Counted from the first letter of the stretch, positions 3,180 through 24,719 are shown. The stretch is 64,000 bases of DNA from an uncultured Bacilli bacterium (GCA_944372115.1 CALVYH010000003.1:28172-92171), one strand, 5' to 3'. Notes: generated by a model from the letters alone, not told the origin. Program-made: numbers and translations.

Positions 3180-3220
3180 AAAATACTTTTTCTCCTTTTA
3201 TTTTTTATAAACACACGAAT

Positions 3221-3278: not shown

Positions 3279-3337
3279 ATTTTTGCAATTTTAATGTTTT
3301 TTTATTTGGATATTATTAATAAAATGCTTAATTATTT

Positions 3338-4297: not shown

Positions 4298-4299
4298 AG

Positions 4300-5232: not shown

Positions 5233-5248
5233 AATTAATTACTTTTAT

Positions 5249-6812: not shown

Positions 6813-8249
6813 TTAAACTTCAACATAGCCAACTGTTTTTAAAGTTTCTTTAACTACATCTCTAGCTAAAATATTAGTTTCAATTATTTCTTCTGCTAAT
6901 GAGGAAGTCGTTTTATAAGCTATATAGTCTATTGTAGCTAAATAGAATTTACCATTATAAGAAGTTGGTGGATTACTTCTAACAACATTTTCTTGTCCAT
7001 TTAAAAACATGTTATACATCGAAGCATCAAATTTCATTAAACATAAAGTATTTTCAAATGGATAAATTTTAAGTAAATCACCATAAGTAAATTCACCCTT
7101 CATTACATCACTTCTTATTCCACCACTATTTATACTTCCACTATCGCAAGGAATCGCTATGTTTTCATTATTAGAAGCATAAGTCATTAAAGAATAAGAA
7201 ATAAATCTAGCAAATTTAGCCTTTGAAACATTATTTTCAAAAGTATATAAAACTTCATCTCTAATACTTTCAATATTATCTTTATATTTATTATAAACTT
7301 CATCTACTTTTAAAGATGATTCATTAAATAAACTATCCTTATTATCCCAAGTAGAAATATTATTGAAAGACGAGGAAATTATTTCATATTCATTATTAGA
7401 ATTAAGTTTTAAATCTAAAGAAATATTTGAAAGATAACTTCCATAATTTTTTCCTTCAATATATGGAACTAATTTATTTTCTTCGTCTAAATACCCGTTT
7501 TTTAAATTATGATCATGCCCTAAAAATAGAGCATCAATATAATCAACTAATTCTAAATATCTTTCATATTCACCATCATGAGTAGATAAAACTACAACTT
7601 CACATTTTTCTTTTTCTCTTAAATTTTTAGCTTCTTCTTTTATTAATTCTATATTTTCATCATAAATAAAATCATCGGCAATAGTCGCTAAAATATCATC
7701 TTCAATTCCAGGCATAATAGCACCAATAATTCCAACATTAATCCCTTCTTTATTAATAACAGTTGAAGAAGATAAATAATAAGGTCTTTTATTAGTAGAA
7801 GCATGAAAAACATTAATTCCTAAAAGAGGAAAATCCATTTTAGAAGCCATTTCTTCTAATTTTTCTTCTCCCCAGTCAAATTCATGATTACCTATTGTCA
7901 TTGAATCAAAACCAATTGCATTCATTGATTCAATGACTACTTCTCCATAAGTAATATTGCTTTCTGCTCCACCCTGAAACATATCTCCACTAGAAATAAT
8001 AAAAGTATTATCAAAATTATTATTTTTTTCATTTATTAAATAATTACCAATTCTTGATAAACCTACTTGTTTATAATCTTCATCATAAAGATATGCCCCA
8101 TGAAAATCATTTAAAGCATAAAAATTTAAAGTTCTTTCTTCTATCCTTTCACCTAGCTCATCATAAGATACTTTATTTTGACAAGATGCAATTGTAATTA
8201 ATGATAAAAATGTTACAAAAATATAAGATAATCCTTTTTTTAATTTCAT
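6813..8249 (-). CDS. 5'-nucleotidase / 2',3'-cyclic phosphodiesterase-3'-nucleotidase family lipoprotein
   Basis: Lipobox IAS-C; NDFHG, GDMFQG, GNHEFD, GHDH metallophosphoesterase motifs; C-terminal NSGGIR...YPFEN. Start placed at ATG 8249 (AGGA RBS) rather than TTG 8294. Confidence 0.9.
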   Translation of the reverse strand: MKLKKGLSYIFVTFLSLITIASCQNKVSYDELGERIEERTLNFYALNDFHGAYLYDEDYKQVGLSRIGNYLINEKNNNFDNTFIISSGDMFQGGAESNITYGEVVIESMNAIGFDSMTIGNHEFDWGEEKLEEMASKMDFPLLGINVFHASTNKRPYYLSSSTVINKEGINVGIIGAIMPGIEDDILATIADDFIYDENIELIKEEAKNLREKEKCEVVVLSTHDGEYERYLELVDYIDALFLGHDHNLKNGYLDEENKLVPYIEGKNYGSYLSNISLDLKLNSNNEYEIISSSFNNISTWDNKDSLFNESSLKVDEVYNKYKDNIESIRDEVLYTFENNVSKAKFARFISYSLMTYASNNENIAIPCDSGSINSGGIRSDVMKGEFTYGDLLKIYPFENTLCLMKFDASMYNMFLNGQENVVRSNPPTSYNGKFYLATIDYIAYKTTSSLAEEIIETNILARDVVKETLKTVGYVEV

Positions 8250-8329
8250 AAGTTTTTCCTTTTTTTTATTTCTTCTTAAATTTATATATTTCAATATATA
8301 AATTTTATTATATTTACTTTATAAGTGTC

Positions 8330-8384: not shown

Positions 8385-10574
8385 TTATTCAGCTAATCTA
8401 ACATTGTCACAAACGATTTGGATATTTCCGTTGTAATCACTTCTAACACATGTGAAGGTAATCTTATCACCAACTTTTAAGTCTTTAGTAACTTCATTTG
8501 TTAACCAATCTTTTGGATTTCCAATTGAATATTTACCACTACCATTATAGTTATATGAAATTTTACCATCTTGTGCTGTTGCACCATAAACTGCTACTTC
8601 AAGACCACTTTCATCAGTAACAACCATATCACCATATTCAGTAGCGCCAGGTTTATTAGTTGCCCATGATTTAATTGTAGCTGTGACCTCATAGATATAT
8701 TGACCAGAAGCAGTTGCACTTGTTGCAGATAATGGAGCACCTTCAACAACTTCTTTTAATGTTGCTTTTGTTGGAGCAATTCTTGTATCGTTTGTAGCTG
8801 CTAAAACACCAACGATTTCTTTTGTATCTTTATAATCTGATCTAATTGCGACCATTGAAATTGTATCGCCGACTTTTAAATCTTTAGTATTTGCGTGAGT
8901 ATTAGCATCTTTTGGATTACTGAATTTATATTCACCAGTTGCTTCATCATAACTTAAAGCTGTATAAGTAGCACTGATTCCATATACAAGAATTTCTTTA
9001 GTTGCATCTTCTTCGTCAACTAAAATGATATTTCCGAATTGATCGATTGCTGTTTGATCACCTTTACTACCAAATCCTTTAATCTTACCTCTAACGACAT
9101 AAGCTTGTTCTTTAGTATTTTGAGCTTCTAAAACTTCAGCTACTGAAGCATGGAGATAATCTGGTTCACCTTGTCTAACTGAAGCAGTTAAAGTAACAAC
9201 ACCAATAGCACCTGATTCTGTTGAAGCACTAATTGTAACAGTTCCTTCACTAACACCAGTAACTAAACCATTTTCATCAACTGTAGCGACTGAAGAATCT
9301 GAAGTTGCCCATGTAATTGTTTCACCTTCTAAAGAAGCGGTGAGTTGTAAACTACTTCCAACAAATAAGTTACCTGTATAAGTAATATCAATACTTGTTG
9401 CTTCTTGATATGGTTCATCAACAACTTCGATTAAGCTTGAATCAACTAACATTAAAGCTGCACCATCAGTAGTTTGCATGTCATTATTGTCACCTTCCCA
9501 AACTACTTCTTTATTCATAGCTTGCATACCAGTGATATTAACAGTTTTTTCACCATTTGAATCTAAGGCTTCTTTTAAAACATCGTAAGCAGCTTTTTTA
9601 GCTTCCATATTGCTATTGTATCTATCAGCATAGAAGAACATTTCAGCACCTTTATATTCTAAAGTTGCAACTACATAATCACCTTCAGTAACTTTACCAT
9701 CAAAATGATTATCAACTAATTCAACACTTGTAACTTTAGCGCCTTCAACTCTAGACATAGTTCCATATGTTGCTTGGGAAATAAATCCTGGGTGACCTAA
9801 AACACTGAATTCAGCTGGAGCAACGCTACTTGCATCTTCTCCACTTAAAATAGTAATTTGTGCATCACTACCTTTAATTTGTTTTGTTCCATTGTATGGT
9901 GAAGAAGTACCACTAACTTCAACGATATCACCAACTTTTAATCCACTTGGAACTTTATTCTTTTTAATATTATAAATCATGAATCCATGATTACCTGATT
10001 GAACAAGAATTCCATACCATTGATCATCATCGCCATCGATAAATCCAACAACTTCACCTCTAACAGCAACTAATCCGCTATTTGGAATATCTTCGATTGC
10101 AATAAGATTTTTATTATTATCGATTGTTAATGTATATGTTAATGAGGCACTTGCGTCATTTAATGTAGCTGTAGCTGTTAATTTTACAGTACTAGTTGTT
10201 CCAAAATCTCCCCAAACAGGTCTTAATTCTAAGTGTGTTGAGCCATTAGAAGAAACTGTTTCTTCTTCTAAAGTGCCTTGAGCATAGTCCCAATCAATTG
10301 CAACATCATAAGTATTACCGCTATCTGATAAATAACTATAAGATGTTTGAGCAATAAGGTAACTTGCAGCCTTTTGTTCGAGTTTGTTGGTGACTCCGTA
10401 TGAATCATCTCTAATTGGAGCAGCTTTATTATCTGTAATAACTGCGGAAGAATTTAAAACAGCTTTAACGATATCTTCATCTGTCATTGTTTCGCTAGCT
10501 GGTTTATCTCCACATGAAGCAAGAACTGCACCTGCACTTAAAACTAAAGCGAGTAATAATTTAGTTTTTTTCAT
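8385..10574 (-). CDS. multi-domain surface lipoprotein: Ig-like domains plus several OB folds (putative nucleic-acid binding)
   Basis: Lipobox LAS-C; OB signature VRGEVV...ILVQSGNHGFMIY...LKVGDIVEVSG...YNGTKQI; Big_2 repeat TWATSDSSVATVDENGLVTGVSEGTVTI; two C-terminal repeats sharing VYG...NPKD...TKDLKVGD...RSDY. Confidence 0.75.
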   Translation of the reverse strand: MKKTKLLLALVLSAGAVLASCGDKPASETMTDEDIVKAVLNSSAVITDNKAAPIRDDSYGVTNKLEQKAASYLIAQTSYSYLSDSGNTYDVAIDWDYAQGTLEEETVSSNGSTHLELRPVWGDFGTTSTVKLTATATLNDASASLTYTLTIDNNKNLIAIEDIPNSGLVAVRGEVVGFIDGDDDQWYGILVQSGNHGFMIYNIKKNKVPSGLKVGDIVEVSGTSSPYNGTKQIKGSDAQITILSGEDASSVAPAEFSVLGHPGFISQATYGTMSRVEGAKVTSVELVDNHFDGKVTEGDYVVATLEYKGAEMFFYADRYNSNMEAKKAAYDVLKEALDSNGEKTVNITGMQAMNKEVVWEGDNNDMQTTDGAALMLVDSSLIEVVDEPYQEATSIDITYTGNLFVGSSLQLTASLEGETITWATSDSSVATVDENGLVTGVSEGTVTISASTESGAIGVVTLTASVRQGEPDYLHASVAEVLEAQNTKEQAYVVRGKIKGFGSKGDQTAIDQFGNIILVDEEDATKEILVYGISATYTALSYDEATGEYKFSNPKDANTHANTKDLKVGDTISMVAIRSDYKDTKEIVGVLAATNDTRIAPTKATLKEVVEGAPLSATSATASGQYIYEVTATIKSWATNKPGATEYGDMVVTDESGLEVAVYGATAQDGKISYNYNGSGKYSIGNPKDWLTNEVTKDLKVGDKITFTCVRSDYNGNIQIVCDNVRLAE

Positions 10575-10589
10575 AATTTTAATTTCCTC

Positions 10590-11999
10590 CTAATTAATAT
10601 GTTCGCTTATATAATTTTTATATTCACTTGCTTTGAAAAATGGGAATTCAATTTGATATGAAACATCATCGGTATCGTTATATTGGAAAATTCCTAATAA
10701 AACATTAACATCATAAGATTTCCCTCTTTTAAATACAGTTCTAATTGTAGATTCTGAAGAGAAGAAATTATGATTTTCACAGCGAATATTAAGGTCAATT
10801 CCATTGCATTTTGCATGAATTGTAAAGGTAGAAGCATCAGTTTGTGATTGATAAACGAAATCATCGCTATCTTCAATAGTAATTGTTGTCTTAACAAGGT
10901 TTCCAGCATAAGGATCAAAAGAATCAACATTTGTAATTAAACTTGGATCCATATAAACAGGGTCTGTATTATAAACATAACCTAATTCTTCAGCTTCTTC
11001 TTTTGTTGTTGCTAAAATTTCGAATGGATAATGGTCGTTATTAAGCTTTACGTCGGTTAATTGCATATTTCCATAATATTTCGTAATTTTCGCATAAAAA
11101 CGAATAATGTCTCCAACCTTTACACCGGCACTCTTATATTGAGTGAATGCAAAAATTGATGCAGGAACAACATCGTCATCCGCAGGATTAACATCTCTTA
11201 CATAGAAATCACTTCCGCTTAAAGCAATAACTTGGCCAATAATTCTTAATTGTTTTCCACTACTTGCAGTTGCATCGTCAACTCCAAGAGTATCAAAATT
11301 TTCTTTAGCATTTGAAATAGTTGTTTCAACTACTTCACCACTAGAGTCAAAATCACAGTCTTTTTCTCCATTAACTCTTCTTCCCTTAGCAACTTCTTGT
11401 GCTTCTTGGAAAGCTTCATAATATCCATCTAAGATACGAGAATTTTGATTTAATAAATTAATTGAATATCCTTGTTCAACAATTTCTAAATTTAATAATC
11501 TAAAATCTTCACCTTCGCTTGGTTGATACCAAACAAATCCCATATATCTTCCGCCACTAGAATCGAATTTTTCAAACATATCTAAATCATTGACGACAAC
11601 GATTCTAGAAGCGTTAGTTAATTTTGATTTTGTGAAATGGGAAGCTTTAATTCCCCATTCTTGGATTGCACCAGTAGATTCAGGTGTATCTATACCTTCA
11701 TATCTAAAACGGAATCTTGCTGTTGCTGATTCATCATTTAAAGGATAAAAGTTAGTAGTATCTCCATCAGTATTAGATGCTAAACTAACTTCCATAATCG
11801 CTAATCCACTAGTTGCAGTTAAAAAATTATTATTTGGAATACTACCCTCATTTGCAAACTTAAAAGAATCAGTTACAGGAGTATCATACTCAGTATTTGC
11901 CCCACAAACATCATCTTTTTGCTTCTCGCCACAAGAGGCGAGAGCAAAAGATACAAATAGAACAGAAATAATATTTTTAAATAATTTTTTCATTTTCAT
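10590..11999 (-). CDS. thermonuclease (SNase-family) lipoprotein with C-terminal OB folds
   Basis: Lipobox LAS-C; DGDT, RYEGIDTPE, GRYMGFV, LNLEIVEQGY; then FYVRD...VKVGDIIRFYAKITKYYGNMQL OB fold. Confidence 0.9.
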   Translation of the reverse strand: MKMKKLFKNIISVLFVSFALASCGEKQKDDVCGANTEYDTPVTDSFKFANEGSIPNNNFLTATSGLAIMEVSLASNTDGDTTNFYPLNDESATARFRFRYEGIDTPESTGAIQEWGIKASHFTKSKLTNASRIVVVNDLDMFEKFDSSGGRYMGFVWYQPSEGEDFRLLNLEIVEQGYSINLLNQNSRILDGYYEAFQEAQEVAKGRRVNGEKDCDFDSSGEVVETTISNAKENFDTLGVDDATASSGKQLRIIGQVIALSGSDFYVRDVNPADDDVVPASIFAFTQYKSAGVKVGDIIRFYAKITKYYGNMQLTDVKLNNDHYPFEILATTKEEAEELGYVYNTDPVYMDPSLITNVDSFDPYAGNLVKTTITIEDSDDFVYQSQTDASTFTIHAKCNGIDLNIRCENHNFFSSESTIRTVFKRGKSYDVNVLLGIFQYNDTDDVSYQIEFPFFKASEYKNYISEHIN

Positions 12000-12031
12000 A
12001 TTTTTAATTTAAATAAATAATAAACACTTAA

Positions 12032-13546
12032 TTAAGCAGGAATATTATTTGGGTTTAATTGATAATATGTATCAAGTAAATCGTACCAGTAATCATCGCT
12101 TGCCGCTTCTTCTTCACTAGCTCCTTCACAAGCTGCCATAATACCAGAAACGTTACTTCTAATTGATGATGAACCAACAAAACCTGGATCAACATATTGA
12201 GTCCAACCTTCTCCACCTTGATAAACATCAAAGTTTAATTTAACAGCATCTCTCATTGTTTTTGAAGTGCCAGTTAATGATTCATCAGTTAAATAATCTT
12301 GATAAACAGTTGATTCATAAGCATCTGTTGTAACAGGGATATAGCCAGTATTTTTAGCAAATGTTGCGTTAACTTCTGGATCATAAGTTAATGTTTTTAA
12401 AAGATCAAATGTTTGAGCTCTGTTTTCAGCATCTACATTTTTAAACATAACTAAGTTAGTTCCTTGAGAAATAACATATTTACAATCTGGTTTATCAGCA
12501 TTATATGGTAATGGGTTAATTTCAACTTCAATACCATCTTGGACACAGTTACTAACACCAGCGGATGAGCCAATTGTGAAAATTGTTTTATAAGCCTTAA
12601 ATGGTGTAGATGTATAACTTGATTCACCAAATGTTGATGGAATACCGATTAATCCTTCTCTGAATAATCTATTAAAGAATTTAAGCATTTCAACAGTTTC
12701 TGAACTCTTATATTGCATATAGCCTTGAGTTTTACCATTAGGTAATGTTTCAACTGTTGTATATGTGCCACCCCATTGTCTAACCATAGTAATAAAGAAG
12801 TTTGCTTGAGAGTCATAAGAACAAACTCTAAAGTCATTCTCACCGACATTAGTTAAATCAATAGCAACATCTTGTCCTGCTTCACCAGCAGCAACAGCAT
12901 TTTCATAAACTACACCGTCAGCGCCAATAACTTTATTGAAAGCACCTGTTTCTTTTAAAACTTTAAGAGTGGCTAAACCGAAAGTTTCCATTTCTTGCCA
13001 TGTTGTAGGGACAGTTGTAATTTTATCAGCACCTGTTTTGTTTGCTGTCATTTTAACTAAAACATCAATAAATGTTCTATTTGTTGTTAAAACTTCAGTT
13101 GATTTATTAAATGGTAAACCCATTACATGTTCTGGAACGATTTCTAAATTTTCTTGTAAATAGTTTGAATAGAATTTATCTAAATCCATATCTTGCTCTT
13201 CGATTGTTGAAGTTAAATCAAATAAAATACCTGATTCTTGATATTGAGCCATATGATCTGGATAAGCAACGGCTAATTGTGGATAAGTTCTAGTAGAAAC
13301 AGAACCAACAATAGCAGCAAGTAAGTTATCATAACCACCTTGTCCAGTATGAACGACTTCCCAACCTTCGTGATCAGCTTCGTAATCATTTAAAATATTG
13401 ACTAATTGAGTTGTCATTGATTCACCGAAACCAGTCCAAATGTTAATTGTCTTGCTTCCGCCAGTAGTTGAACCTTGATTACAACTTGTTAATGCAAATA
13501 AACCAATTACTGGAACTGCAGCTAACAATTTAATTTTTTTGTTCAT
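12032..13546 (-). CDS. CUT1 ABC importer extracellular solute-binding lipoprotein (UgpB-like, copy 1)
   Basis: Lipobox LTS-C; INIWTGFG, YPQLAVAYPDH, GLPFNKSTE, VPTTWQEM, SQGTNLVMF, TGYIPV. Confidence 0.9.
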   Translation of the reverse strand: MNKKIKLLAAVPVIGLFALTSCNQGSTTGGSKTINIWTGFGESMTTQLVNILNDYEADHEGWEVVHTGQGGYDNLLAAIVGSVSTRTYPQLAVAYPDHMAQYQESGILFDLTSTIEEQDMDLDKFYSNYLQENLEIVPEHVMGLPFNKSTEVLTTNRTFIDVLVKMTANKTGADKITTVPTTWQEMETFGLATLKVLKETGAFNKVIGADGVVYENAVAAGEAGQDVAIDLTNVGENDFRVCSYDSQANFFITMVRQWGGTYTTVETLPNGKTQGYMQYKSSETVEMLKFFNRLFREGLIGIPSTFGESSYTSTPFKAYKTIFTIGSSAGVSNCVQDGIEVEINPLPYNADKPDCKYVISQGTNLVMFKNVDAENRAQTFDLLKTLTYDPEVNATFAKNTGYIPVTTDAYESTVYQDYLTDESLTGTSKTMRDAVKLNFDVYQGGEGWTQYVDPGFVGSSSIRSNVSGIMAACEGASEEEAASDDYWYDLLDTYYQLNPNNIPA

Positions 13547-13604
13547 TTATAATTTTCCTCCTTGAACAACACTTTTAAATATATCTAATATGCGATATGC
13601 ATTA

Positions 13605-14654
13605 TTAGCCTTTAATACCACTTCTAGAAACACCTCTCATAATATACTTATGGAAGAATATAAAGAGGATAAATAGTGGCAAAGTAACAACAACGGAACC
13701 AGCCATTTTACCTGGTTGGTTATCGCTAAATTCTGAAGAGAATGAAGCCATTAATCCGTTTGAAACTAATCTAATATCATAATCATCGCCGAAAATAACT
13801 GAATGTTGAATTCTTCCATTAGCAACAAGTTGAGGCCAAACGTAAGCATTCCATCCACCCATCAGCGAAAGAATAATAATTGTAACAATAGTTGGCATAC
13901 CGATTGGAATCATAACTTTTAAAAGATATTTCCAGTCTGTATAACCATCAACTTTAGCAGCTAAATATAATTCGTTAGGAATTTGTTGGAACGTTTGTCT
14001 TAAATAGAAAATATAGAAAACAGAAACACCATGTACCAAAATAAGTGCATAGAATGTATTTTCCCAATTAAATTCCTTGACCAATGCATAATTAGTAATA
14101 ACCATCATTTCACCAGGAATCATCATAGTTGCTAAAATAACTAAGAAAAGTGCATTTTTGCCTTTAAAATTTAATCTTGCAAAAGCAAAAGCGGCTAAAA
14201 CAGAAGTAATAACTGTAACCAACATTCCGCCTGCTGCACTAATAAATGTATTCAAAAAATAAATCCAGAATGATGTTTTTTCTTGAACAATTCCTAAATT
14301 ATCAACATATGTTGGAGCAAAAACCGAAACATAATTTTCAAAAGTAAAAGGAATTGGCAAAAGTGTAATTGTATTATTGCTCTTATTCATTTCAAATGTT
14401 GTTTGAGAAATGAATGATGTTGAAATCATAAAAAGGAATGGTAAAAGAATAAAAATTGCAAAGACAATTAAGAAAATATACATTAAAGTTTGCGAAAAAA
14501 TTAATTTTGGTAAATAACTTTTACCAATTGTATATTCACCTTGTTTCTTATTACCTCTATGTTCGAGACGATATCTCTCACTTTCAGCTAACTTTTTATT
14601 ACCAGTTTCTAAGTAAGCTTGTAATTCTTGTTCACTCTTAATAGCGTTTCTCAT
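13605..14654 (-). CDS. CUT1 ABC permease (UgpE/MalG-like, copy 1)
   Basis: AAFAFARLNFKGK, IPNELYLAAKVDG, WNAYVWP; C-terminus KYIMRGVSRSGIKG. Confidence 0.92.
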   Translation of the reverse strand: MRNAIKSEQELQAYLETGNKKLAESERYRLEHRGNKKQGEYTIGKSYLPKLIFSQTLMYIFLIVFAIFILLPFLFMISTSFISQTTFEMNKSNNTITLLPIPFTFENYVSVFAPTYVDNLGIVQEKTSFWIYFLNTFISAAGGMLVTVITSVLAAFAFARLNFKGKNALFLVILATMMIPGEMMVITNYALVKEFNWENTFYALILVHGVSVFYIFYLRQTFQQIPNELYLAAKVDGYTDWKYLLKVMIPIGMPTIVTIIILSLMGGWNAYVWPQLVANGRIQHSVIFGDDYDIRLVSNGLMASFSSEFSDNQPGKMAGSVVVTLPLFILFIFFHKYIMRGVSRSGIKG

Positions 14655-14666
14655 TATAAAACCTCC

Positions 14667-15911
14667 TTAATAGTGGACTCTTTTCTTACTAACAGCAAAT
14701 TGAATGGCTGTAATTAAAAGAATAATAATTAAAAGTACAATACTTCCTGCGGCAGCATACCCTGGATTTAATGGATTTATTTGTTTCATATCGCGATATA
14801 AATAACCGACAACCGTAATCCATTCAACACCTTGATATCCACCAAAGAAATAGTTGTTTTGTGAAATATAAATCGATCTAACATCAGTATACATTTTGAA
14901 TGCACCAATGAATGATGTTATTGTAATATAAAGAATTTGTGGAGAAAGTAATGGAACAGTGATTTTTCTAAAAATTTTTGCTCCGCTTGCTCCATCAATT
15001 CTGGCAGCATCATAATATTGCTTGTCAATTGTAGATAATCCTGAAAGGAAAACTAAAATTTTGAAAGCCATTTGATTCCAAACTGAATAAGTTACAATAA
15101 CAACTCCTTGAGCCCATCTTGGAGCACCTTCTGTAACCCATTGTTGATTCAAACCAAAAAGAGTATTAAATAAGCCACCACCAACAGCTCCATTGGTATA
15201 GCTTGTAAAAATAAGGTTAAAAACCATACCTAATGCAATTGTATTTGTAACATATGGTAAAAAGAAAACAGTTTGAAAAAATCCCTTTAAAAACTTAATT
15301 CTATGAATAAAATAAGCAATTAAAAGGGAAACCAAAATGGTTAATGGAACTTCTAAAATAACAAGTTCAAAAGTATTCCATAAACTCTTAATGAATAATG
15401 AGGTAGGAATATTTTGACCAAATAAATTAATTGAATAACTAGTATTACTAAAAAGATATGTAAAATTTCCAAAACCAAAAGTTGTTGGATAAGGAGCTTC
15501 AGTACAAACAATTCCACTTCCTCCAACAGCACTCATATCTTCGCAAATTGTTGAATTTCCTTTAATGATATTAGCAATTGAGAAAGAACCTGCTCCGTCT
15601 ACCCATGTAAAATCTTCGGTAAAAGCGATAATGAAGCTATTAAAGATTGGATAAATCATGAATAAACAGATTAAAATGAAAGCAGGAATTAAAACCAAGA
15701 AAGCTAAAAGGTTTTGATTCATGTGGAATAATCTTTTTTTTGCTTCTAATGGTCTATTAATATTAAATTTGCATGTTCCGTCAGCATTATAATAATAAGA
15801 TTCTTCGTGCCCTCTATGTCTTAATCTTAAATATAAGTTATAGAAGGATTCTTTTACTTTGTTGAAGAAACTATTTTTCTTACTCGCATTATTTTCCATA
15901 ACAATTACCAA
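14667..15911 (-). CDS. CUT1 ABC permease (UgpA/MalF-like, copy 1)
   Basis: FQTVFFLPYVT, IDKQYYDAARIDGA, ITVPLLSP; N-terminal extension and enlarged first extracellular loop. Confidence 0.92.
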   Translation of the reverse strand: MVIVMENNASKKNSFFNKVKESFYNLYLRLRHRGHEESYYYNADGTCKFNINRPLEAKKRLFHMNQNLLAFLVLIPAFILICLFMIYPIFNSFIIAFTEDFTWVDGAGSFSIANIIKGNSTICEDMSAVGGSGIVCTEAPYPTTFGFGNFTYLFSNTSYSINLFGQNIPTSLFIKSLWNTFELVILEVPLTILVSLLIAYFIHRIKFLKGFFQTVFFLPYVTNTIALGMVFNLIFTSYTNGAVGGGLFNTLFGLNQQWVTEGAPRWAQGVVIVTYSVWNQMAFKILVFLSGLSTIDKQYYDAARIDGASGAKIFRKITVPLLSPQILYITITSFIGAFKMYTDVRSIYISQNNYFFGGYQGVEWITVVGYLYRDMKQINPLNPGYAAAGSIVLLIIILLITAIQFAVSKKRVHY

Positions 15912-15914
15912 AAA

Positions 15915-17699
15915 TTAATAAATTCTTTCTCCAGTTTCTTCAAAAACATAAATACGTTTAGCAGAGAAATTTAAGATTTCTTTACCAACACATTCTTTTG
16001 CAAGTTCTGAAGAAATAATGATTTTGACATGTCCTTCTTCAAGTCCAACAACATCACCAATAACAGATATATCTCTACCGATATGTTCGATATTAAAAAC
16101 TTTAACTGCAATTGGTCCGTTTGGATCTAAAACGAAGGATTCAGCTCTAATACCAATTTTGCATTCTCTAATAGGATTTAAACGTCCTTCTAAGGAAGCA
16201 ATAATCTTTTCTATTCTCTCTTTTGATTCCTCTGAATCAATTCCATTTGAATTTCTTAAAATTTCAATTTGATAATCTTTAATTTTCTTTGTGCCTTCCC
16301 AATCGCTATCTTTATATAAATCTTCGATTTGATGTGCAAAAGGAATAACATCAATTGCAACCTTAGCTTTTTGAACGAGTTTTTTAATTTTTTTAAGTCC
16401 GTTTGGAGAAGATGCCGCTTCAACTTCTTCTATTTCTTTTAAAACTGCATTAACAAGGACTTTTTCTTCATCGTTATTAGTTTTAACTCTACTAACTTCC
16501 ATTTTTCCTCTAGCAATTGCAATTTTATCTTTAATATTTAAAAGTATTTTTTCGACTTCATCCTCACTTGCAGAAGAAATGTTTTGAACTTCGCTGTTAT
16601 AAACATCAATAACGCTTTGATCATCATATTTGCAAAGAGATTTTTTAATCTTTTTAAGACCTTTTAAAAGTTGTTTGTTCTCAATTGATGGTAATGTAGC
16701 GTTTAAATAACAATCAAATTCAGGTAAAGATTGGTTATTTTCTTCATTGTTTGCTTTTTTATCTTTTTTAGTTTCGAATTCGTTTATACCAGAAATAATA
16801 TTTGTGCCGCAAACATTACAATATTTACCATTATGAGAAACAACATTACCACAATTAGGGCAGATAACCTCTTCAATGTGTACTTTGTCTAATTCTGGGG
16901 AAGATAAAACTTCTTTTTCCGCCATATAAAGTTTTCCGTTTTCAATTCTTCCATCAAAAACATTGATTGCAGGTGTACCTAAGAATTTAGCAACGAATAA
17001 ATTAGCAGGTTCATCATAAACTTTTTGTGGCTCATCTTTTTGTTGAACAATTCCATCTTTCATAACAACAATAAAATCAGAAATTGACATTGCTTCTTCT
17101 TGGTCGTGTGTAACGAAAACTGTTGTAATTCCAGTTTCTTTTTGGATTCTCTTAATTTCTTCTCTTGTTTGAAGTCTTAATCTAGCATCAAGATTTGATA
17201 AAGGTTCATCAAGTAAAAGGACTCTTGGTCTTTTTGCTAAAGCTCTGGCAATAGCGACTCTTTGTTGTTGACCACCAGATAATTCTTTTGGTTTTCTATC
17301 TAATAATTTTTCAATATTAACAATTTTTGCATTTTCAAGTGCAATAGCACATTTTTCATCAAATGTAAGTTTAGGGACGACATTATCTAAAGGGAACATA
17401 ATGTTTTGTCTAACATTAAAGTGTGGGTAAAGAGCATAGTTTTGGAAAACTAAACCAATACCACGATTTTCTGGAGGTACGTTGGTAACATCTTCATTAC
17501 CGAAATATATTTTTCCTTCGGTAGGATTATGAATTCCAGCAATCATATAGAGAGTGGTTGATTTACCACATCCAGAAGGTCCTAAAAGTCCACACAATTT
17601 TCCATCAGGAATATCGAAAGTCATATTATTAACAGCAACTGTTTTAGCGCCTTTCTTTCCTTCAAATGTTTTAACGAGGTTTTGAATCTTAACTTCCAT
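15915..17699 (-). CDS. CUT1 ABC ATPase (UgpC/MalK-like, copy 1) with zinc-ribbon/helical insertion
   Basis: GPSGCGKS, LSGGQQQR, DEPLSNLD, THDQEEA; CPNCG...YCNVCG insertion before the terminal GIRAE TOBE segment. Confidence 0.93.
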   Translation of the reverse strand: MEVKIQNLVKTFEGKKGAKTVAVNNMTFDIPDGKLCGLLGPSGCGKSTTLYMIAGIHNPTEGKIYFGNEDVTNVPPENRGIGLVFQNYALYPHFNVRQNIMFPLDNVVPKLTFDEKCAIALENAKIVNIEKLLDRKPKELSGGQQQRVAIARALAKRPRVLLLDEPLSNLDARLRLQTREEIKRIQKETGITTVFVTHDQEEAMSISDFIVVMKDGIVQQKDEPQKVYDEPANLFVAKFLGTPAINVFDGRIENGKLYMAEKEVLSSPELDKVHIEEVICPNCGNVVSHNGKYCNVCGTNIISGINEFETKKDKKANNEENNQSLPEFDCYLNATLPSIENKQLLKGLKKIKKSLCKYDDQSVIDVYNSEVQNISSASEDEVEKILLNIKDKIAIARGKMEVSRVKTNNDEEKVLVNAVLKEIEEVEAASSPNGLKKIKKLVQKAKVAIDVIPFAHQIEDLYKDSDWEGTKKIKDYQIEILRNSNGIDSEESKERIEKIIASLEGRLNPIRECKIGIRAESFVLDPNGPIAVKVFNIEHIGRDISVIGDVVGLEEGHVKIIISSELAKECVGKEILNFSAKRIYVFEETGERIY

Positions 17700-17817: not shown

Positions 17818-18975
17818 TCATAAATTTTTATCATTTTTCTGAATTAATTTTACCCTTTCATTTACTTGATTAGATAGTTTGTCTTCCGTTTCCTTATTTA
17901 AAAACCAAACACTATTTTTTGTGTCAATAACTCTAGTAACAGAAATTAAATCTCCTATTGAAGTATGATGTTTAGTAAAAATAATTATTAAATAATCAAT
18001 TAAATAAAATAATCCTAAAGTAAAATATCCAACAAATGCTTCAGCTGAAATAAACAAATATTTAACAAAAATTTGAATCTTTTTTACTTGATACTCTTCT
18101 TTTCTAATTAAACCAAGCTTCATCATTCTCATTGATAAAGTTTCGCCGTTTTTTGATAACAGTGGAATTAAAATAAAATAAATTAATAAAGCTATAGTTA
18201 AAGAAATATAAAAAACATAACGCCCAATTCTTTCTAAATCTATATAAATTTCATAGTATTTATCAGTTTCTCTTAAATAAAAACAAGCTTGATGATAACT
18301 TCCAGGATAAGCATCTGTATCTGCAAAAATTCTTAAATAAGCTCTAATATAAGATTGGTTTTCATTAGCAGAAAAAGATTTAGATTCATCTTTAGTATAA
18401 GTTACTCCATTATAAATTACTTGATTATAAATACCTATATTTGAAGAAGCCACTTCTCCATCTTCATCAAAAGTTAATGGATCAGAGCTTTTATCGCCAT
18501 TAATAATATAAAAAGCTTTAAAATTTGGATACTCTTCATTATCGATATTGCAAACATTTTTATAAAACCATTCATTTAATTCCTCATGATTAGGAACTTC
18601 ATCAAAAATAATGTTATATCCATTTATTTTATCTAAATAATTAAAATAAAAGTTATAAAGCATTTTTAAAAATATCATATGTGAATCATATGTAAAATAA
18701 CCATTTTCATCAGTTAATTTATCTGCGGAAATATAATTTACTTCAGTTAATGGTTCTTCATCGATACCAGAATCATCAAAAAATAATCCGCTATCAACCT
18801 GTATTTCTTTTACTTCTTTTAACTTTTGAGGAATATGAAAACCGTAATCAATATACCCCTCAACAGTAGGTAAATAGGTTGGGATAATAAGAATAATAAT
18901 AAATAATAAATCTAAAATATATCCGAAAGTTCTCTTTCCTAAAGAACCATAATGAATCGATCTAATCTTCTCCAT
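17818..18975 (-). CDS. RDD-family membrane protein with large extracellular insert
   Basis: KRTFGYILD + TM1; ~210-aa loop; IYFILIPL...GETLSMRMMKL; HTSIGDLISVTRV. Confidence 0.8.
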   Translation of the reverse strand: MEKIRSIHYGSLGKRTFGYILDLLFIIILIIPTYLPTVEGYIDYGFHIPQKLKEVKEIQVDSGLFFDDSGIDEEPLTEVNYISADKLTDENGYFTYDSHMIFLKMLYNFYFNYLDKINGYNIIFDEVPNHEELNEWFYKNVCNIDNEEYPNFKAFYIINGDKSSDPLTFDEDGEVASSNIGIYNQVIYNGVTYTKDESKSFSANENQSYIRAYLRIFADTDAYPGSYHQACFYLRETDKYYEIYIDLERIGRYVFYISLTIALLIYFILIPLLSKNGETLSMRMMKLGLIRKEEYQVKKIQIFVKYLFISAEAFVGYFTLGLFYLIDYLIIIFTKHHTSIGDLISVTRVIDTKNSVWFLNKETEDKLSNQVNERVKLIQKNDKNL

Positions 18976-19954
18976 TTATTTTGTCTGCCTCTAATTCTTC
19001 AAAATTATTATAAATGATAGATTCTTTTTTATTTGCAACCCTAGAAAAAGATAAAAGATCAAGAAGCGAAGCGTTTTCTCTATTCATTAAAGTCGCTAAC
19101 CAATTAAATAAAAAATACCCTCCATAAATTGGTGCTAAAATAAAAACATTATCTTCAAAAAGAATAACAATTAATAAAATAACCATCGGAACATTTCTAA
19201 TCAAAAAGAAATATCTTTTTTGATATAGACCATCTTTAGAAACCAAAGCTATTTTTGTTAAAAACCTCCCTAAAGTGAATCCATATTTATTTGTAACTGG
19301 AGGAATAACAAAAATTAAGAAATAAGGTATGAAAGCTGAAAAGAATATACGATAAACCCCTTTTTGAACGATTGAATTTCTAGCTATTTCATAAAAACTA
19401 TCATTATAAAGATCACTGAAAATTTCACGATAATGTCGAGAATAAAATGTTAAAAGGTCAGCTTTAGCATCATCAGTTAAATCCTTCGTCTTATCTTCAT
19501 CTTCATAATATTTAGCTTTTATTACTCCGATTTTAGAAGTATCTATTTTTCCATTTTCATCATATTGATATTCAAAATAAGTATAATCGGTTCCAAGTTG
19601 AAGGATTTTCTCGTTATATTCTTCAACTTTATAACAACTTCTTTCTCCACCATTTTCCTTATAAAATGAAGAGCCAAAATATTTATCAGTTAAATAATAA
19701 TTTTCAACAACTTCTTGATACTTAATATAATCTGAAGAATTTAATTGATTATAATACCCATTTTTATCTTTTATTAATAAACCCGAATAAACTTGGGCTT
19801 TAGCAACTATTTGATCTTCATCGTAAGAATTAAATATATATTTAAAAATAAATGTTGATGCGATGAAAAATAAAACACCAAAAATAATGAAATCTATACA
19901 AATTCCAAGGAATCTTAACGACATTTTTGGATAAACAATTCTTTTATTTTCCAT
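18962..19954 (-). CDS. RDD-family membrane protein with large extracellular insert
   Basis: LRFLGICID + TM1; loop; IFVIPP...GFTLGRFLTKI; ASLLDLLSFSRV. Confidence 0.8.
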   Translation of the reverse strand: MENKRIVYPKMSLRFLGICIDFIIFGVLFFIASTFIFKYIFNSYDEDQIVAKAQVYSGLLIKDKNGYYNQLNSSDYIKYQEVVENYYLTDKYFGSSFYKENGGERSCYKVEEYNEKILQLGTDYTYFEYQYDENGKIDTSKIGVIKAKYYEDEDKTKDLTDDAKADLLTFYSRHYREIFSDLYNDSFYEIARNSIVQKGVYRIFFSAFIPYFLIFVIPPVTNKYGFTLGRFLTKIALVSKDGLYQKRYFFLIRNVPMVILLIVILFEDNVFILAPIYGGYFLFNWLATLMNRENASLLDLLSFSRVANKKESIIYNNFEELEADKINGED

Positions 19955-20021
19955 TTAAAACATCCCTTCAAAATTTAAGTATATTAACTTTATCAAAAAA
20001 TGAACTTAAATAATATAAAAA

Positions 20022-21137
20022 TTAACTTAATATATCTTCTTTAATTAAGTAAGTTTTACTTATAACCTCGAATAAATTCTTATTTCTTTTATTAACTAAA
20101 ATAAAGATAAGATTAAATAATATAAATAAGAATCCTATAAATGGAAGAGTATATAAAGTTAAATAAGAAGAATAATTTTTAATACCTATTTTAAAGATAG
20201 GTATTAAAAATAATATTGGAAAACATTCAACACTTTTAATTAAAAAAAGGAATAAACATTCTAAATTATTAATATATGACTTATCTTTTTCTTTAATTCT
20301 TTCTACTTTAACTAAATTTTCGCCAATACTTTCTTTTTTCTTTGAAAAAGCAGGATAAATGAAAAACAAAATAAAAGAAACTAGAAAAAACGTTATTAAT
20401 GCACAATAAAAATAATTATCATTAATAATTTTATCATTTTCATTTATTTTGTTTCGTAAAAGTAAATAAGAAGTTGAATTATCTAACGAAACTAAATCAT
20501 TAACTTTAATATCATTTAATAAATATTCATAAAATTTTGTAAATAAAACGCTTAAATTTGCATAATCTTCATACCCCTTAACACTCATTTCTTCATCTTC
20601 GTTAAAAAGTAAAATAAACTCATCTTGATATTCTTGTTTTAAAGAAACACTGTTATTGATTAAATAAACATCTTTTTCAAAAAAAGGTGATAAAAATTCT
20701 AACTTTAAATTATTTAAAGAAGAAACATCTTCTTTTTTTATACCAACAAAATAATTATAAAAAACATCGTATTTTGAAGTTTCTTCATTATTTTTAACTA
20801 AAAATTTGCAAAAATAATAAAATGTTTTACTTAAAGAATCACTTAAAGAATATTTATCGCTACTTTCACTATCATCAAAAAATAAAAGTTCATGTTCATA
20901 TAAAAGATTGAAAATTTCTTTTTCACCCTTCTCATTCTCTTTAATTAAATTATCATAAGAAATTATTGGTCTTGATATTTGAAATATAACAAGATTAAAA
21001 ATAACTAATGAAAGTATTAAAGAAGTAATAATATCAATAAAAAAAGAAAACATTCTATCTTTTAAAGTGACTTTCTCATTAAAACTACTTACTTCTTTTT
21101 TAATATCTTTATTTTCCATACTTAGAAAAAATAACAC
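20022..21137 (-). CDS. RDD-like membrane protein with large extracellular insert
   Basis: DRMFSFFID + TM1; loop; FFIYPAF...ESIGENLVKV; KNLFEVISKTYLI. The true start may be ATG 21119. Confidence 0.72.
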   Translation of the reverse strand: MLFFLSMENKDIKKEVSSFNEKVTLKDRMFSFFIDIITSLILSLVIFNLVIFQISRPIISYDNLIKENEKGEKEIFNLLYEHELLFFDDSESSDKYSLSDSLSKTFYYFCKFLVKNNEETSKYDVFYNYFVGIKKEDVSSLNNLKLEFLSPFFEKDVYLINNSVSLKQEYQDEFILLFNEDEEMSVKGYEDYANLSVLFTKFYEYLLNDIKVNDLVSLDNSTSYLLLRNKINENDKIINDNYFYCALITFFLVSFILFFIYPAFSKKKESIGENLVKVERIKEKDKSYINNLECLFLFLIKSVECFPILFLIPIFKIGIKNYSSYLTLYTLPFIGFLFILFNLIFILVNKRNKNLFEVISKTYLIKEDILS

Positions 21138-21191
21138 AATTTTGATAAATATATATAATTAATTTTTCTTTAAAATCTTAACAAACTATTT

Positions 21192-22139
21192 TTACCTTCC
21201 TTCATTTTTCTTCTTACTATATAAATACTCTTCATAATTTAAATAAAATTTCTTATTTTCATTACTTAAACTATAGGATTGAGATAAATATTCGTTTAAA
21301 TTTTGGTGAGAAATAGAAAAAATCATCATCCCTATACTTATTAATAAGGGAATAAAAAATGTAAAAAGAGATAATAAAAATTCAAGGAAGAAAAAGTATA
21401 AAAACTTAATTAAGAAATCTTTTTTAGATAATGAAAATCCATTTACTTTTAAATTTCCAAATCTAAAAATTAATTTTCCGATTGTTTTATTTCCTCTTTT
21501 TATAATTAAAGGAATAAAAAGATAAAATATTAAAACACTAATAATAATTGATGAAACTAATAAAATAATTTGAAAAATAAATATTTTATTAGTTTCATTT
21601 TTATAAATATCGTTTTGAAGTAAATATCCTATCGCATTTTCATTAATTATATAAATATAAAATTCAACAAAATCTTTATCTAAAGCATCTACTTTTTCTT
21701 TTATTTCGTTACTTATTTCATCTTTATAAAATAAATTATTCCCATATTCTAACTTTAATTCGTTTAATAAATTATTGCCAAAAGAAGAAATACCACTATA
21801 ACAATTTAAATTAATATAAAAGTAATTAACTCTTTTTTCTAAATCTTTTCTTTTTTCATTATTAGAAATAGTTTTATTATTTTCATAATAATCACTAATT
21901 AAAATATATTCTTCATTACTTTTTATATATAAAGAAGAATCTTCTATAACCGTGTTTATAGAAGATATACTTTCTTTATATATAGAAGTATTTGTATAAA
22001 TAAAAAGTGAAGATAAAGTTAAAATTAACGCTAAAAAGATAGTAATAAATATATCGATTATCGCACTAAAAAACCTTTTATATAAAGGAACATAATCATA
22101 TTCTATTTCTATTACATTTTCTTTTTTTTCTTTTTCCAT
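21192..22139 (-). CDS. RDD-family membrane protein with large extracellular insert
   Basis: KRFFSAIID + TM1; loop; FYLFIPL...KTIGKLIFRF; HQNLNEYLSQSY. Confidence 0.8.
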   Translation of the reverse strand: MEKEKKENVIEIEYDYVPLYKRFFSAIIDIFITIFLALILTLSSLFIYTNTSIYKESISSINTVIEDSSLYIKSNEEYILISDYYENNKTISNNEKRKDLEKRVNYFYINLNCYSGISSFGNNLLNELKLEYGNNLFYKDEISNEIKEKVDALDKDFVEFYIYIINENAIGYLLQNDIYKNETNKIFIFQIILLVSSIIISVLIFYLFIPLIIKRGNKTIGKLIFRFGNLKVNGFSLSKKDFLIKFLYFFFLEFLLSLFTFFIPLLISIGMMIFSISHQNLNEYLSQSYSLSNENKKFYLNYEEYLYSKKKNEGR

Positions 22140-22195
22140 CGTTTAATTATTTTATTAAATTTAAAAAATAATATAAAACTTATTTATTTCATTCT

Positions 22196-23365
22196 TTATT
22201 TCATTTCATTTATAAATTCATCACTTTTTTTAATAATTTCATTACTGCCTAAATTTATTAAAGAATAGTGTTTTTTATTTAAAAGAGGTAAAAACATATT
22301 AATTAATAAAAGTAGAAAAGAGAATATTGATATATTAAAAATATTTATAAAACCTATAAAAATCATATTTAAATATGAAAAATAAAATAAAAATATAAAA
22401 ATAAGCAATGAAAATAAGAATATTAAATAAAGAAGTATAAATTTTGTTAAATAATTTATAAATTTTAAATTTAAGTTAGTTTTTTTATTTGCCCCAACAA
22501 GTTTAAACATCTTCATCATTAAAGTTTGATCTTTTTTGAAAATTAAAAGCGGAATTAAAAAATAAATAATAAAAGCTAATGTATAAGAAATAAATAGTTC
22601 ATAAATTAAGTAAATATAATATTCATCATTTAATTTTTTAAAATCAGAAAATGATAAATTATAATTACTATCATTACTTTCAAAATCTTTAATTAATTCA
22701 TTATAAAAAAGTGAGTAATTATCTAAATATTCATTATAAAACGAACTATATTCATTAGAATAATCTTCTTCAAAAATATATTTTGTTAATTTTAAAGCAA
22801 CTTCTTCTTTAAAAAGAAAATAGTTAGTTTCTAAAAAGTTATTTTCATAATAATTAATAAAATATTTATTAAAAAGCTCTAAAATAAACTCATCATTTTT
22901 ACTTTTATCTTTTGTTATATTATTTAAACGATAATTAAATAAATAAAAATTTATATTTTCTTCACTATAATCATCAAAAATTTCATAATCTTTATATAAA
23001 TTTCCTTTAAATTCATAGTTAATACCAACTAAATAAGTTTTTAAGCTCCTTCTTATTTCTTTATAAATAGTATCTTCAAAAGAAATTAAGTTATTATCTT
23101 CTATTTCTAAAAGCGAAGAAGATTCGGAAATTTTATATAAATTTCCTCTACTTTCATTAATTTCACTAATTTTATTACTTACACTAGGAATTAAAAAACC
23201 AATTTGATTAGTAAAAATACCTTGAATTAATGAAAAAAGAATAAAAAATAAAGCAAAATCTAATAAAAATACTAAAAATCTCTTTTTTGAAGGAGCATTT
23301 TCATTTAAAGAATAATTAAAATTCTTATTAATATTTTTATCTTTTATTAAAAATATATTTTTCAT
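22196..23365 (-). CDS. RDD-like membrane protein with large extracellular insert
   Basis: KRFLVFLLD + TM1; loop; IYFLIPL...QTLMMKMFKL; HYSLINLGSNEII. Confidence 0.75.
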   Translation of the reverse strand: MKNIFLIKDKNINKNFNYSLNENAPSKKRFLVFLLDFALFFILFSLIQGIFTNQIGFLIPSVSNKISEINESRGNLYKISESSSLLEIEDNNLISFEDTIYKEIRRSLKTYLVGINYEFKGNLYKDYEIFDDYSEENINFYLFNYRLNNITKDKSKNDEFILELFNKYFINYYENNFLETNYFLFKEEVALKLTKYIFEEDYSNEYSSFYNEYLDNYSLFYNELIKDFESNDSNYNLSFSDFKKLNDEYYIYLIYELFISYTLAFIIYFLIPLLIFKKDQTLMMKMFKLVGANKKTNLNLKFINYLTKFILLYLIFLFSLLIFIFLFYFSYLNMIFIGFINIFNISIFSFLLLLINMFLPLLNKKHYSLINLGSNEIIKKSDEFINEMK

Positions 23366-23372
23366 TTAAAAA

Positions 23373-24719
23373 TTAATCAATTTTTCTAAGCCAATCACCG
23401 ATTTCACTATAATCATCAATCCAAATAGTAATCAAATCATATGAGAAAAAATAATTTGTAACATCTCTAAATGTTTTTTCACCATATCTTTCTTCTTTTT
23501 TCATAAATATAAAATTAAATTTTAAAAAGTTAGAAGCTAATTCTAATAATCTTTTCATATTTGGATCAGTTAAAGATATTCCAATAAAAATTGATGTTTT
23601 AAACATAAAATCATGTAATTGCTTAGCAATATTCCATGAATATGGGTTGTTATAAAGATAAAAATATTCAGATTCATTAAAAATTAATGAATCTGTAAAT
23701 TTTTCTTCATTGTATTTATCAAAAGGAAGTAATCCATGCACATGATAAATATCCACCTTTGCATCTTTAGTTAAAAAGGCGTTATCATCATAAACCGTGT
23801 TATATAAAATACCCCTTCTTTTAAGAATGTACTCTAAGTTTGTGTCGTAATTATATGTGATAACTGTTGTTTTATTCTGTCTTTCAATAAAATTGGTTAA
23901 TTCATATAAAGTAGAATTAGGATCATCAAAATCAATATTGTCCTTAAAAAGATATAATTCTTTATTTAATTCTTTATAAGTATCAAATCCGTTAGTTTTT
24001 AAAATTTTTGAAGAAACGAAAAGTTCATTTCCAACATAATGAGAAATTTCTTCCATTCTTTCCTCATTTCCTTCATAAAAAGTTGAATTTAAGGCTGAAA
24101 TTAAATGTTTCCAATCTTTTGCACCATAATTTACATTCATTCCCGCTCCTAAAATAAGGTCAGTATCAAGTTGATAAGTAAAAAGTTTTAAAAGATAAAG
24201 AATGAAAGAATCTTCATTTTCTTCTTGTCTATCTAAGTTTAAACGATATAAAAGTTCATCTTTAAATAAAGATTCATCTTTTTTCTTTAAAGTGTAGTTA
24301 ATTTTCTTTCCTTCAATATATCCAACAGCTAAAAAATTATCTTCATCGAAGTAAATATTTAAACTCGATAACGGAATATAAGGATCTAAATTTTTTAAAG
24401 ATTTTACTTTAAAGAAATTTACGTTACCCATAATATCTACCTCCTCTAAATTAACTTTAAAAATAGAAGAGTAAATATGAACAACATATTTATGAATATG
24501 GTCATGAGATGAATAAACAACAACTTTAAAATTACATTTTGGATCGAAATGAAATCCGAAAGATCTAAAAATTATTTTTTTATAACTAACTCCATTTAAA
24601 TAATATAAATAAAGTAAGATAAGTAAGCATTTTTTGCTAAATATGTAATTTTCTCTTTCTTTTTTTCTCATAAACACAAATTTCCTAACGTTTAAAATTT
24701 TAGCATGTTTTAGGTTCAA
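23373..24719 (-). CDS. SIR2-like domain protein (SIR2_2 type, putative NADase) with unknown N-terminal domain
   Basis: LILGAG, ITYNYD, YHVHG, IFIGISLTDPN motifs in the C-terminal ~260 aa; alternative in-frame ATG at 24671. Confidence 0.85.
   Translation of the reverse strand: MNLKHAKILNVRKFVFMRKKERENYIFSKKCLLILLYLYYLNGVSYKKIIFRSFGFHFDPKCNFKVVVYSSHDHIHKYVVHIYSSIFKVNLEEVDIMGNVNFFKVKSLKNLDPYIPLSSLNIYFDEDNFLAVGYIEGKKINYTLKKKDESLFKDELLYRLNLDRQEENEDSFILYLLKLFTYQLDTDLILGAGMNVNYGAKDWKHLISALNSTFYEGNEERMEEISHYVGNELFVSSKILKTNGFDTYKELNKELYLFKDNIDFDDPNSTLYELTNFIERQNKTTVITYNYDTNLEYILKRRGILYNTVYDDNAFLTKDAKVDIYHVHGLLPFDKYNEEKFTDSLIFNESEYFYLYNNPYSWNIAKQLHDFMFKTSIFIGISLTDPNMKRLLELASNFLKFNFIFMKKEERYGEKTFRDVTNYFFSYDLITIWIDDYSEIGDWLRKID

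Follow-up and report, generated by a model that had tools for sequence, protein, structure and literature searches.

Split RDD membrane proteins form two-gene modules beside CUT1-type ABC importers in an order of uncultured Bacilli

The RDD family (PF06271; COG 'YckC') is a very widespread family of membrane proteins with almost no known biology. Its hallmarks are an Arg and an Asp in the first transmembrane helix (TM1), a second helix (TM2) ending in Pro, a basic T-L-G motif, and a C-terminal S-L-x-D. One member, from Halobacillus andaensis, is reported in PMC5996927 to be a Na+(Li+,K+)/H+ antiporter, and another, in Mycoplasma hominis, changed in abundance on thymidine according to an excerpt of PMC9301678. 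In actinomycete mce operons, as part of PMC1810536 describes them, Mas1B orthologs join an N-terminal RDD domain to an extracellular Mas domain. Here we describe five RDD genes in a 64,000-nucleotide stretch of DNA, hereafter the window, from the genome (G000) of an uncultured Bacilli bacterium (GCA_944372115.1 CALVYH010000003.1:28172-92171). Their products share the hallmarks of the family but differ from ordinary members in that a folded surface insert of 148-215 aa splits the domain, their length is double the usual one, and the genes belong to conserved pairs encoding unlike subunits that stand beside ATP-binding cassette (ABC) importers of the CUT1 type. Like the Mas1B orthologs, as far as the cited part of that report describes them, they combine an RDD anchor with an extracellular domain as an extra, noncanonical component of an ABC importer operon. 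In Mas1B, however, the RDD domain comes first, at the N terminus, with the Mas domain behind it, whereas here the external domain interrupts the RDD domain and no relative of it could be detected. The Mas1B systems are also of the Mce/YrbE kind, while those described here are CUT1 systems with lipoprotein binding proteins in a Bacilli host with a small genome.

An initial annotation of the window had noted five consecutive, codirectional RDD genes of 315-389 aa at 17818-23365, and the open reading frames (ORFs) lie exactly there, all on the minus strand.

17818-18975, minus strand: RDD1, 385 aa, second gene of the RDD2-RDD1 pair; Pfam RDD score 42.0 bits
18962-19954, minus strand: RDD2, 330 aa, first gene of the RDD2-RDD1 pair; Pfam RDD score 29.6 bits
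20022-21119, minus strand: RDD3, 365 aa, orphan first-type subunit; Pfam RDD score 35.1 bits
21192-22139, minus strand: RDD4, 315 aa, second-type subunit of the RDD5-RDD4 pair; Pfam RDD score 33.4 bits
22196-23365, minus strand: RDD5, 389 aa, first-type subunit of the RDD5-RDD4 pair; Pfam RDD score 19.3 bits

RDD2 and RDD1 overlap by 14 nt, and the gap from the RDD1 stop codon to the start of the importer's ATPase gene is 118 bp, as first measured. The window is AT-rich (about 18-35% G+C) and reads cleanly under the standard bacterial code, with TAA as its dominant stop codon. RDD3 could begin at a GTG at 21137 (371 aa) or at the ATG at 21119 (365 aa), where the protein starts with MENK like its paralogs. 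A single fused RDD3-RDD4 gene, offered by a 706-aa open frame in the genome search, was rejected, as a TAA at 21192-21194, the commonest stop in the window, ends RDD4.

Four of the five proteins (RDD1 to RDD4) pass the Pfam gathering score for RDD, which is 24.1 bits for a model of about 137 positions. RDD5 falls below it, with a match on its N-terminal part only, and is tied to the family by BLASTP to RDD1 (1e-6) and by a profile of the family (1.6e-56); it is a very diverged RDD protein. The Pfam scan found RDD alone in the five proteins, no NCBIfam or PADLOC model matched any of them, and they are the only RDD-family matches in the G000 genome. The impression of high divergence was borne out, with paralogs only 22-28% identical to RDD1 in pairwise comparisons. 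Measured against orthologs in the relative G062, the ratio of nonsynonymous to synonymous substitution rates (dN/dS) is 0.15 for RDD1, 0.12 for RDD2, 0.33 for RDD3, 0.25 for RDD4, and 0.22 for RDD5, and 0.17-0.27 for the inserts alone, values that point to real genes under purifying selection in all five cases. RDD3 evolves fastest (63% identity to its G062 ortholog), and its membrane part is the least constrained (dN/dS 0.43, 54% identity).

The motifs listed in the initial annotation are visible in the alignment. Arg-x6-Asp at TM1 is invariant in all five proteins (R15 and D22 in RDD1 numbering), and D22 is conserved at a level of at least 90% among 67 family members. The insert opens with an S-x-L motif, TM2 ends in Pro, and a T-L/I-G basic motif and an S-L-x-D/E/N tail follow. 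As first noted, only two copies, RDD1 and RDD2, keep the last signature Asp, which is replaced by Glu in RDD3 and RDD4 and by Asn in RDD5; this loss in three of five is a difference from ordinary RDD proteins. Pfam matches span model positions ~41-136 and start only past residue ~188-250, while the N-terminal part matches separately. Because the matches begin at model position ~41 and TM1 with its Arg-x6-Asp lies at the N terminus, the RDD domain is split, as had been proposed. Instead of one contiguous domain of ~137 positions, an insert of 148 aa (RDD4) to 215 aa, with 208 aa in RDD5, lies between TM1 and TM2. In RDD1, TM1 occupies residues ~20-38, the insert 39-253, and the RDD core 254-345, with a C-terminal helix beyond.

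An AlphaFold2 model of RDD1, based on 67 family members, is confident, with a predicted local distance difference test score (pLDDT) of 92.9 and a predicted template modeling score (pTM) of 0.78. It shows an N-terminal helix, a mixed alpha/beta domain at 39-253, an RDD core made of a long helix, a short beta-hairpin, and further helices, and finally the C-terminal helix; the insert modeled alone is confident too, at a pLDDT of 87.4 and a pTM of 0.85. The N terminus and the loop after TM2 are rich in Lys and Arg, and the inserts are acidic, with isoelectric points of 4.3-4.7. This distribution fits a topology in which the N terminus would be cytoplasmic and the insert extracellular. No match to FtsW/RodA/SpoVE or to a penicillin-binding protein transpeptidase was found in the 96%-complete, 1.25-Mb G000 genome; therefore, the cell is probably wall-less despite its standard code, and the inserts probably lie on a naked surface.

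Comparisons of the insert with known folds gave little. Neither the whole RDD1 model nor the insert-only model had a Foldseek match at an E value of ≤0.001, the best VIA-align Z score for the insert was 4.2, with none of 5 or more among 48,161 chains, and a sequence-profile search of the PDB returned nothing at E values up to 1. A feature search of the ESM Atlas with the insert gave scores of ≤0.80, which serve as leads only. These missing matches are no proof of a new fold. An insert profile found 45 cluster representatives among 1.84 billion proteins, all of which carry the insert at residues ~30-250. In 41 of the 42 representatives scanned, an RDD domain follows it (the exception is a 204-aa protein), and thus the insert is known only inside RDD proteins. 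The membrane part gave a different picture: VIA-align matched it to the membrane domains of Pex2, Pex10, and Pex12 (PDB 7t92) with a Z score of 11.4 over 142 residues (root mean square deviation 3.6, 13% identity), with the next row at 6.2, and chains of 7t92 also filled the top three Foldseek rows for the whole RDD1 model (E values 0.16-1.5). Like the RDD pairs, the Pex proteins are homologous subunits, and they form a hetero-oligomer. They belong, however, to a eukaryotic peroxisomal ubiquitin-ligase complex, and no RING domain is present here. We treat this resemblance as a lead only, as a Z score of 11.4 may reflect nothing beyond a common helical arrangement.

A profile built from the five proteins has matches in 58 of the 60 genomes of the genus, and a broader profile picks up 111 of the 121 in the order. 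When 301 genomes sampled across the class were searched, full-profile matches came, among the matches listed, solely from the order's own families; outside the order, those listed covered the C-terminal RDD part only, in frames of ~150-270 aa. Within the listed matches of this sample, insert-bearing RDD proteins thus appear restricted to the order, and the ordinary RDD proteins of the class, at 150-260 aa, have about half the size of the window's, as the initial annotation had stated. To look at gene context we used 40 loci, 20 of them within the genus and 20 outside it, in other genera and families, chosen from hit lists before their context was known. They hold 43 RDD arrays.

Among these arrays, 39 have two genes, one has three, two have four, and one has five. 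The junction within two-gene arrays is +3 nt or less in 38 of 39, and in 36 of these the genes overlap. The five-gene array was seen in G000 and G062 only, while G067 has four genes, RDD3 not being seen there. The idea of a five-part unit therefore gave way to that of a pair. Trees resolved six orthogroups, arranged as three modules: RDD2 followed by RDD1, RDD5 followed by RDD4, and RDD3 followed by RDD6. The RDD3 and RDD5 types group together in a clade of 30 rows that holds first genes only, the window's RDD5 among them (support of 90 in the Shimodaira-Hasegawa-like approximate likelihood ratio test, SH-aLRT), and a clade of 28 rows (SH-aLRT 91) unites the second genes, types RDD4 and RDD6, with RDD4 sister to RDD6. 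From these separate clades it follows that the RDD3/5 and RDD4/6 pairs were duplicated as units. First-type subunits often fall under the Pfam RDD cut-off, a further departure from ordinary family members, while second-type subunits pass it. The trees (54 and 99 rows) come from a quick IQ-TREE search in which all hits with E values of ≤1e-5 were kept and support is SH-aLRT only.

RDD2 orthologs lie directly before RDD1 orthologs in 11 loci. In ten loci of the genus the RDD3 ortholog is followed by RDD6, by a membrane-anchored protein of ~510 aa, and by a third importer, ABC3, which comes with two binding proteins and, at most of the ten, with an SNase. RDD6, the ~510-aa protein, and ABC3 were not found in the 96%-complete G000 genome, leaving RDD3 unpaired. 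One-to-one orthology does hold for each copy, across six orthogroups, one of which was not found in G000. Read from this gene order, the array in the window consists of an RDD5-RDD4 pair, an orphan RDD3, and an RDD2-RDD1 pair, in other words two and a half copies of an order-wide two-gene module. In our reading RDD3 would be the leftover of a lost module, still under some constraint.

The protein encoded between the RDD3-RDD6 pair and the third importer ranges from 500 to 717 aa. Copies lie at 8777-10312 on the minus strand of locus L015, at 9584-11113 on the plus strand of L020, and at 11141-13159 on the plus strand of L036. Its features are a signal sequence, an extensive external portion, and C-terminal membrane helices; it is without a Pfam match and in four copies from the genus ends in a conserved tail, DDGTLII(R/N)K.

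The pairs are linked to importers well beyond the closest relatives. A CUT1 ABC gene lies on the same strand within 2.5 kb of 35 of the 43 arrays, downstream of 29 and upstream of 6. The type of pair also follows the type of importer: in 11 of 11 loci, pairs of the RDD2/RDD1 type stand before importers with permeases of the PERM1/PERM2 type, and in 22 of 23 arrays, pairs of the RDD3/5 plus RDD4/6 types stand before importers of the P2a/P2b type, the one without being L042. RDD5/RDD4-type pairs stand directly before an importer of the ABC2 type in relatives (L032 and L046). Each type of pair thus appears to go with its own type of importer. Rearrangements preserve the link: a pair closes the ABC/nuclease operon at its 3' end in L051, another precedes an operon with a short ATPase in L052, and in L047 a pair is flanked by the genes for amylase and pullulanase. 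Surface enzymes accompany the linked arrays: SNase in 21, Endonuclease_1 in L032, and alpha-amylase with pullulanase in family f7. Because the enzymes vary by lineage, the link is to importers with surface polymer hydrolases and not to nucleic-acid uptake alone. The proposed tie to a nucleic-acid uptake locus therefore stood in part, with nucleases present in most lineages but an amylase/pullulanase ABC cluster in one family. On the whole, the observation of a five-gene RDD array was confirmed, and its earlier interpretation was partly supported, with two changes: a pair takes the place of five chains as the unit, and the link extends from nuclease-linked importers to hydrolase-linked ones generally.

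In the window, two such importers, with surface enzymes between them, lie downstream of the array, and a SIR2_2-domain gene lies upstream.

15915-17699, minus strand: ABC1 ATPase, 594 aa, MalK/UgpC-like; Pfam ABC_tran 1.4e-36, NCBIfam UgpC-like
14667-15911, minus strand: PERM1, ABC1 permease; Pfam BPD_transp_1, 56.4 bits
13605-14654, minus strand: PERM2, ABC1 permease; Pfam BPD_transp_1, 66 bits
12032-13546, minus strand: ABC1 solute-binding lipoprotein, 504 aa, with a signal sequence ending in Cys; Pfam SBP_bac_8 8.3e-23
10590-11999, minus strand: SNase-type surface lipoprotein; Pfam SNase 5.9e-11, the only SNase match in the G000 genome
8385-10574, minus strand: Big_2/OB-fold surface protein, by Pfam
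6813-8294, minus strand: 5'-nucleotidase-type phosphoesterase, by Pfam
5249-6727, minus strand: ABC2 ATPase, of the second CUT1 importer, by Pfam
4300-5232 and 3338-4297, minus strand: ABC2 permeases, by Pfam
1671-3179, minus strand: ABC2 binding protein, by Pfam
23373-24719, minus strand: SIR2_2-domain gene, 7 nt upstream of RDD5; Pfam SIR2_2 9.7e-14

Both ABC1 (12032-17699) and ABC2 (1671-6727) have the full makeup of a CUT1 importer: a MalK/UgpC-like ATPase, two BPD_transp_1 permeases, and an SBP_bac_8/1 protein. No terminator-like site was found between the RDD genes and the ABC1 ATPase gene. The ABC1 ATPase has ~300 extra residues past its nucleotide-binding domain and a zinc-ribbon match at 277-300, with the DZR and Zn-ribbon Pfam models scoring under their cut-offs. 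ATPases of 437-696 aa are common at such importers in relatives; a specific link between long ATPases and RDD pairs was considered and dropped, as long ATPases occur without pairs in G000 and short ATPases with pairs in L051 and L052. The Big_2/OB-fold protein is 99% identical to its G062 ortholog (dS 0.049, against 0.45-0.88 for its neighbors), which looks like a recent exchange or conversion between the two lineages. Nuclease-linked ABC operons of the sugar-import family exist in mycoplasmas, and ABC1 resembles them in its long MalK/UgpC-like ATPase, two permeases, P68/UgpB-like lipoprotein, and SNase lipoprotein. We know of no RDD pair in the mycoplasma operons.

We propose that the pairs are an accessory module of hydrolase-linked CUT1 importers, with each type serving its own importer, and we put the probability of this reading at about 0.45. 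RDD2-RDD1 would serve ABC1 and its nuclease, RDD5-RDD4 would probably serve ABC2, and RDD3 would be a remnant whose partner and importer are gone. Because the genes of a pair overlap or adjoin, the two proteins are probably produced together, and the gene arrangement gives somewhat better than even odds that the first-type subunit, a strongly diverged RDD, and the second-type subunit, a canonical RDD, act as a heterodimer. A prediction of the RDD1-RDD2 complex from ortholog alignments returned an ipSAE of 0.00 in two runs made without controls, a result that counts neither for nor against binding. A scaffold or docking role for the pair is a more tentative suggestion, possible but on balance doubtful, in which the paired surface domains would form a platform beside the permeases, on which the binding lipoprotein, the hydrolase, or the substrate is kept within reach of the importer.

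Several findings weigh against an accessory role of this kind. G092, a congener of G031, keeps a syntenic ABC/SNase operon with its flanking genes and has no RDD pair, so at least one such importer can do without it; the long RDD form occurs in one of the six genomes of that genus. G000 itself has about nine CUT1-type importers in its 1.25 Mb (18 BPD_transp_1 matches), most of them without a pair nearby, and ABC2 lies 15 kb from RDD5-RDD4. In L048 to L050 the pairs are convergent with the ABC cluster and outside it, and L042 has no CUT1 genes nearby. The loci come from related genomes and so are not independent, and ORF starts were taken as the most upstream start codon, by which some gene overlaps may be overstated. 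The placement of RDD1 and RDD2 differs between the two trees, and the deep nodes come from the quick search. The remaining exceptions to the 2.5-kb linkage are of other kinds: two are RDD5-RDD4 pairs that sit upstream of another pair, the array in L044 is interrupted by an inserted gene on the opposite strand, and the L051 pair, placed after its ABC/nuclease operon, has its closest ABC gene at a distance of 4.5 kb.

It is unlikely, in our estimate, that the pairs are independent transporters of small solutes or ions that are merely cotranscribed with the importers, for example balancing ions or moving a product of hydrolysis such as a nucleobase or phosphate. Such a role would agree with the antiport reported for the Halobacillus protein, with the invariant Arg and Asp at TM1, with the G092 operon that exists without a pair, and with the likeness of the membrane part to the channel-forming Pex2/10/12 domains, subject to the caution already given for helical bundles. 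A generic ion function, however, needs neither a separate type of pair for each type of importer nor a conserved surface domain of 148-215 aa, the last signature Asp is gone from three copies, and the TM1 Arg and Asp are themselves described, in PMC5996927, as unnecessary for antiport. We hold it equally unlikely that the RDD pair physically joins the importer, giving a type I ABC importer of two permeases and two split-RDD subunits whose surface domains, of possibly novel fold, would capture polymer fragments or dock the binding lipoprotein and the hydrolase. FtsX and MacB (type VII ABC systems) offer another model, in which the domain between TM1 and TM2 would bind and control the operon's surface hydrolase, possibly driven by the long ATPase. 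External domains of FtsX activate hydrolases, the layout is the same (N terminus inside, TM1, a large external domain, further helices), the gene adjoins an ABC ATPase gene, and the operons contain hydrolases of different kinds (SNase, Endonuclease_1, alpha-amylase, pullulanase). A passage of PMC13181095 also mentions a predicted RDD-peptidase heterodimer in Campylobacter jejuni. Beyond layout and gene order, though, the likeness ends: PF02687 has no match at E values up to 1 in the five proteins, while the same library detected an FtsX protein in L042; the MacB and YtrEF rows in Foldseek reached only E values of 1.7-5.5; long ATPases stand at pair-less importers in G000 and short ones with pairs in L051 and L052; and the operons already have a separate, canonical pair of permeases. 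We therefore regard this model as improbable.

Two further explanations concern the cell surface and defense. The suggestion of a diversified surface receptor set, made in the initial annotation, or likewise of variable antigens, draws on the surface-exposed inserts, the low identity of the paralogs, and the tandem arrangement, but we now consider it highly improbable. The inserts are under the purifying selection described above, every copy can be followed as a stable ortholog from genus to genus and family to family, neither repeats nor switching elements were observed, and copy number tracks modules of a pair plus an importer. We see scarcely any likelihood at all that a SIR2-based anti-phage system uses the RDD proteins as its membrane effectors. 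The SIR2_2 gene does head RDD-ABC clusters in 10 of the 40 loci, in two families (L013 to L016, L020, L028, L041, and L043 to L045), and in PADLOC it has a weak ThsA-type match (3e-8, 30.7 bits). Yet the RDD proteins have no PADLOC match, and most pairs have no SIR2 neighbor, compared to an ABC neighbor for 35 of 43 arrays. The gene is also syntenic and unusually conserved for a defense-type domain, with a dN/dS of 0.06, 93% identity to G062, and 59-96% identity across loci. Within its coding region, at 23669-23695, lies a hairpin with a 12-bp stem and a T-run, terminator-like on both strands.

No account of RDD proteins that are both split and paired and stand beside CUT1 importers turned up in full-text literature searches, in line with the initial view that no such system had been described. 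What the order offers is pairs of unlike subunits with a surface domain of no detectable known fold, duplicated along with nutrient importers in uncultured gut and rumen bacteria that seem to live by scavenging DNA and starch, and retained in a reduced genome; this lineage thereby supplies a clear and repeatable genomic context for RDD proteins. If the pair belongs to the importer machinery, it would be a new class of component for type I ABC importers and a first functional handle on RDD. If it physically joins the importer, the result would be a new importer architecture, a Gram-positive, wall-less counterpart of a surface 'utilisation complex' that handles DNA and starch. Should the pair act as an independent transporter instead, its strict pairing and coduplication would still need explaining. 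Either way, the pair is a compact and well-defined target for expression, pull-down, and structure work.

Two other RDD-like sequences came to light. In G062, the closest relative, an extra frame at 279162-280118 of contig C1 has two in-frame TAA stops and may be a decayed sixth copy. The other is a 481-aa database protein (P0019) on a contig of 1.6 kb. It matches RDD2 at 98% identity across 75% of RDD2, yet Pfam labels it as an alpha-amylase, and either a genuine fusion or a chimeric gene call may be behind it.

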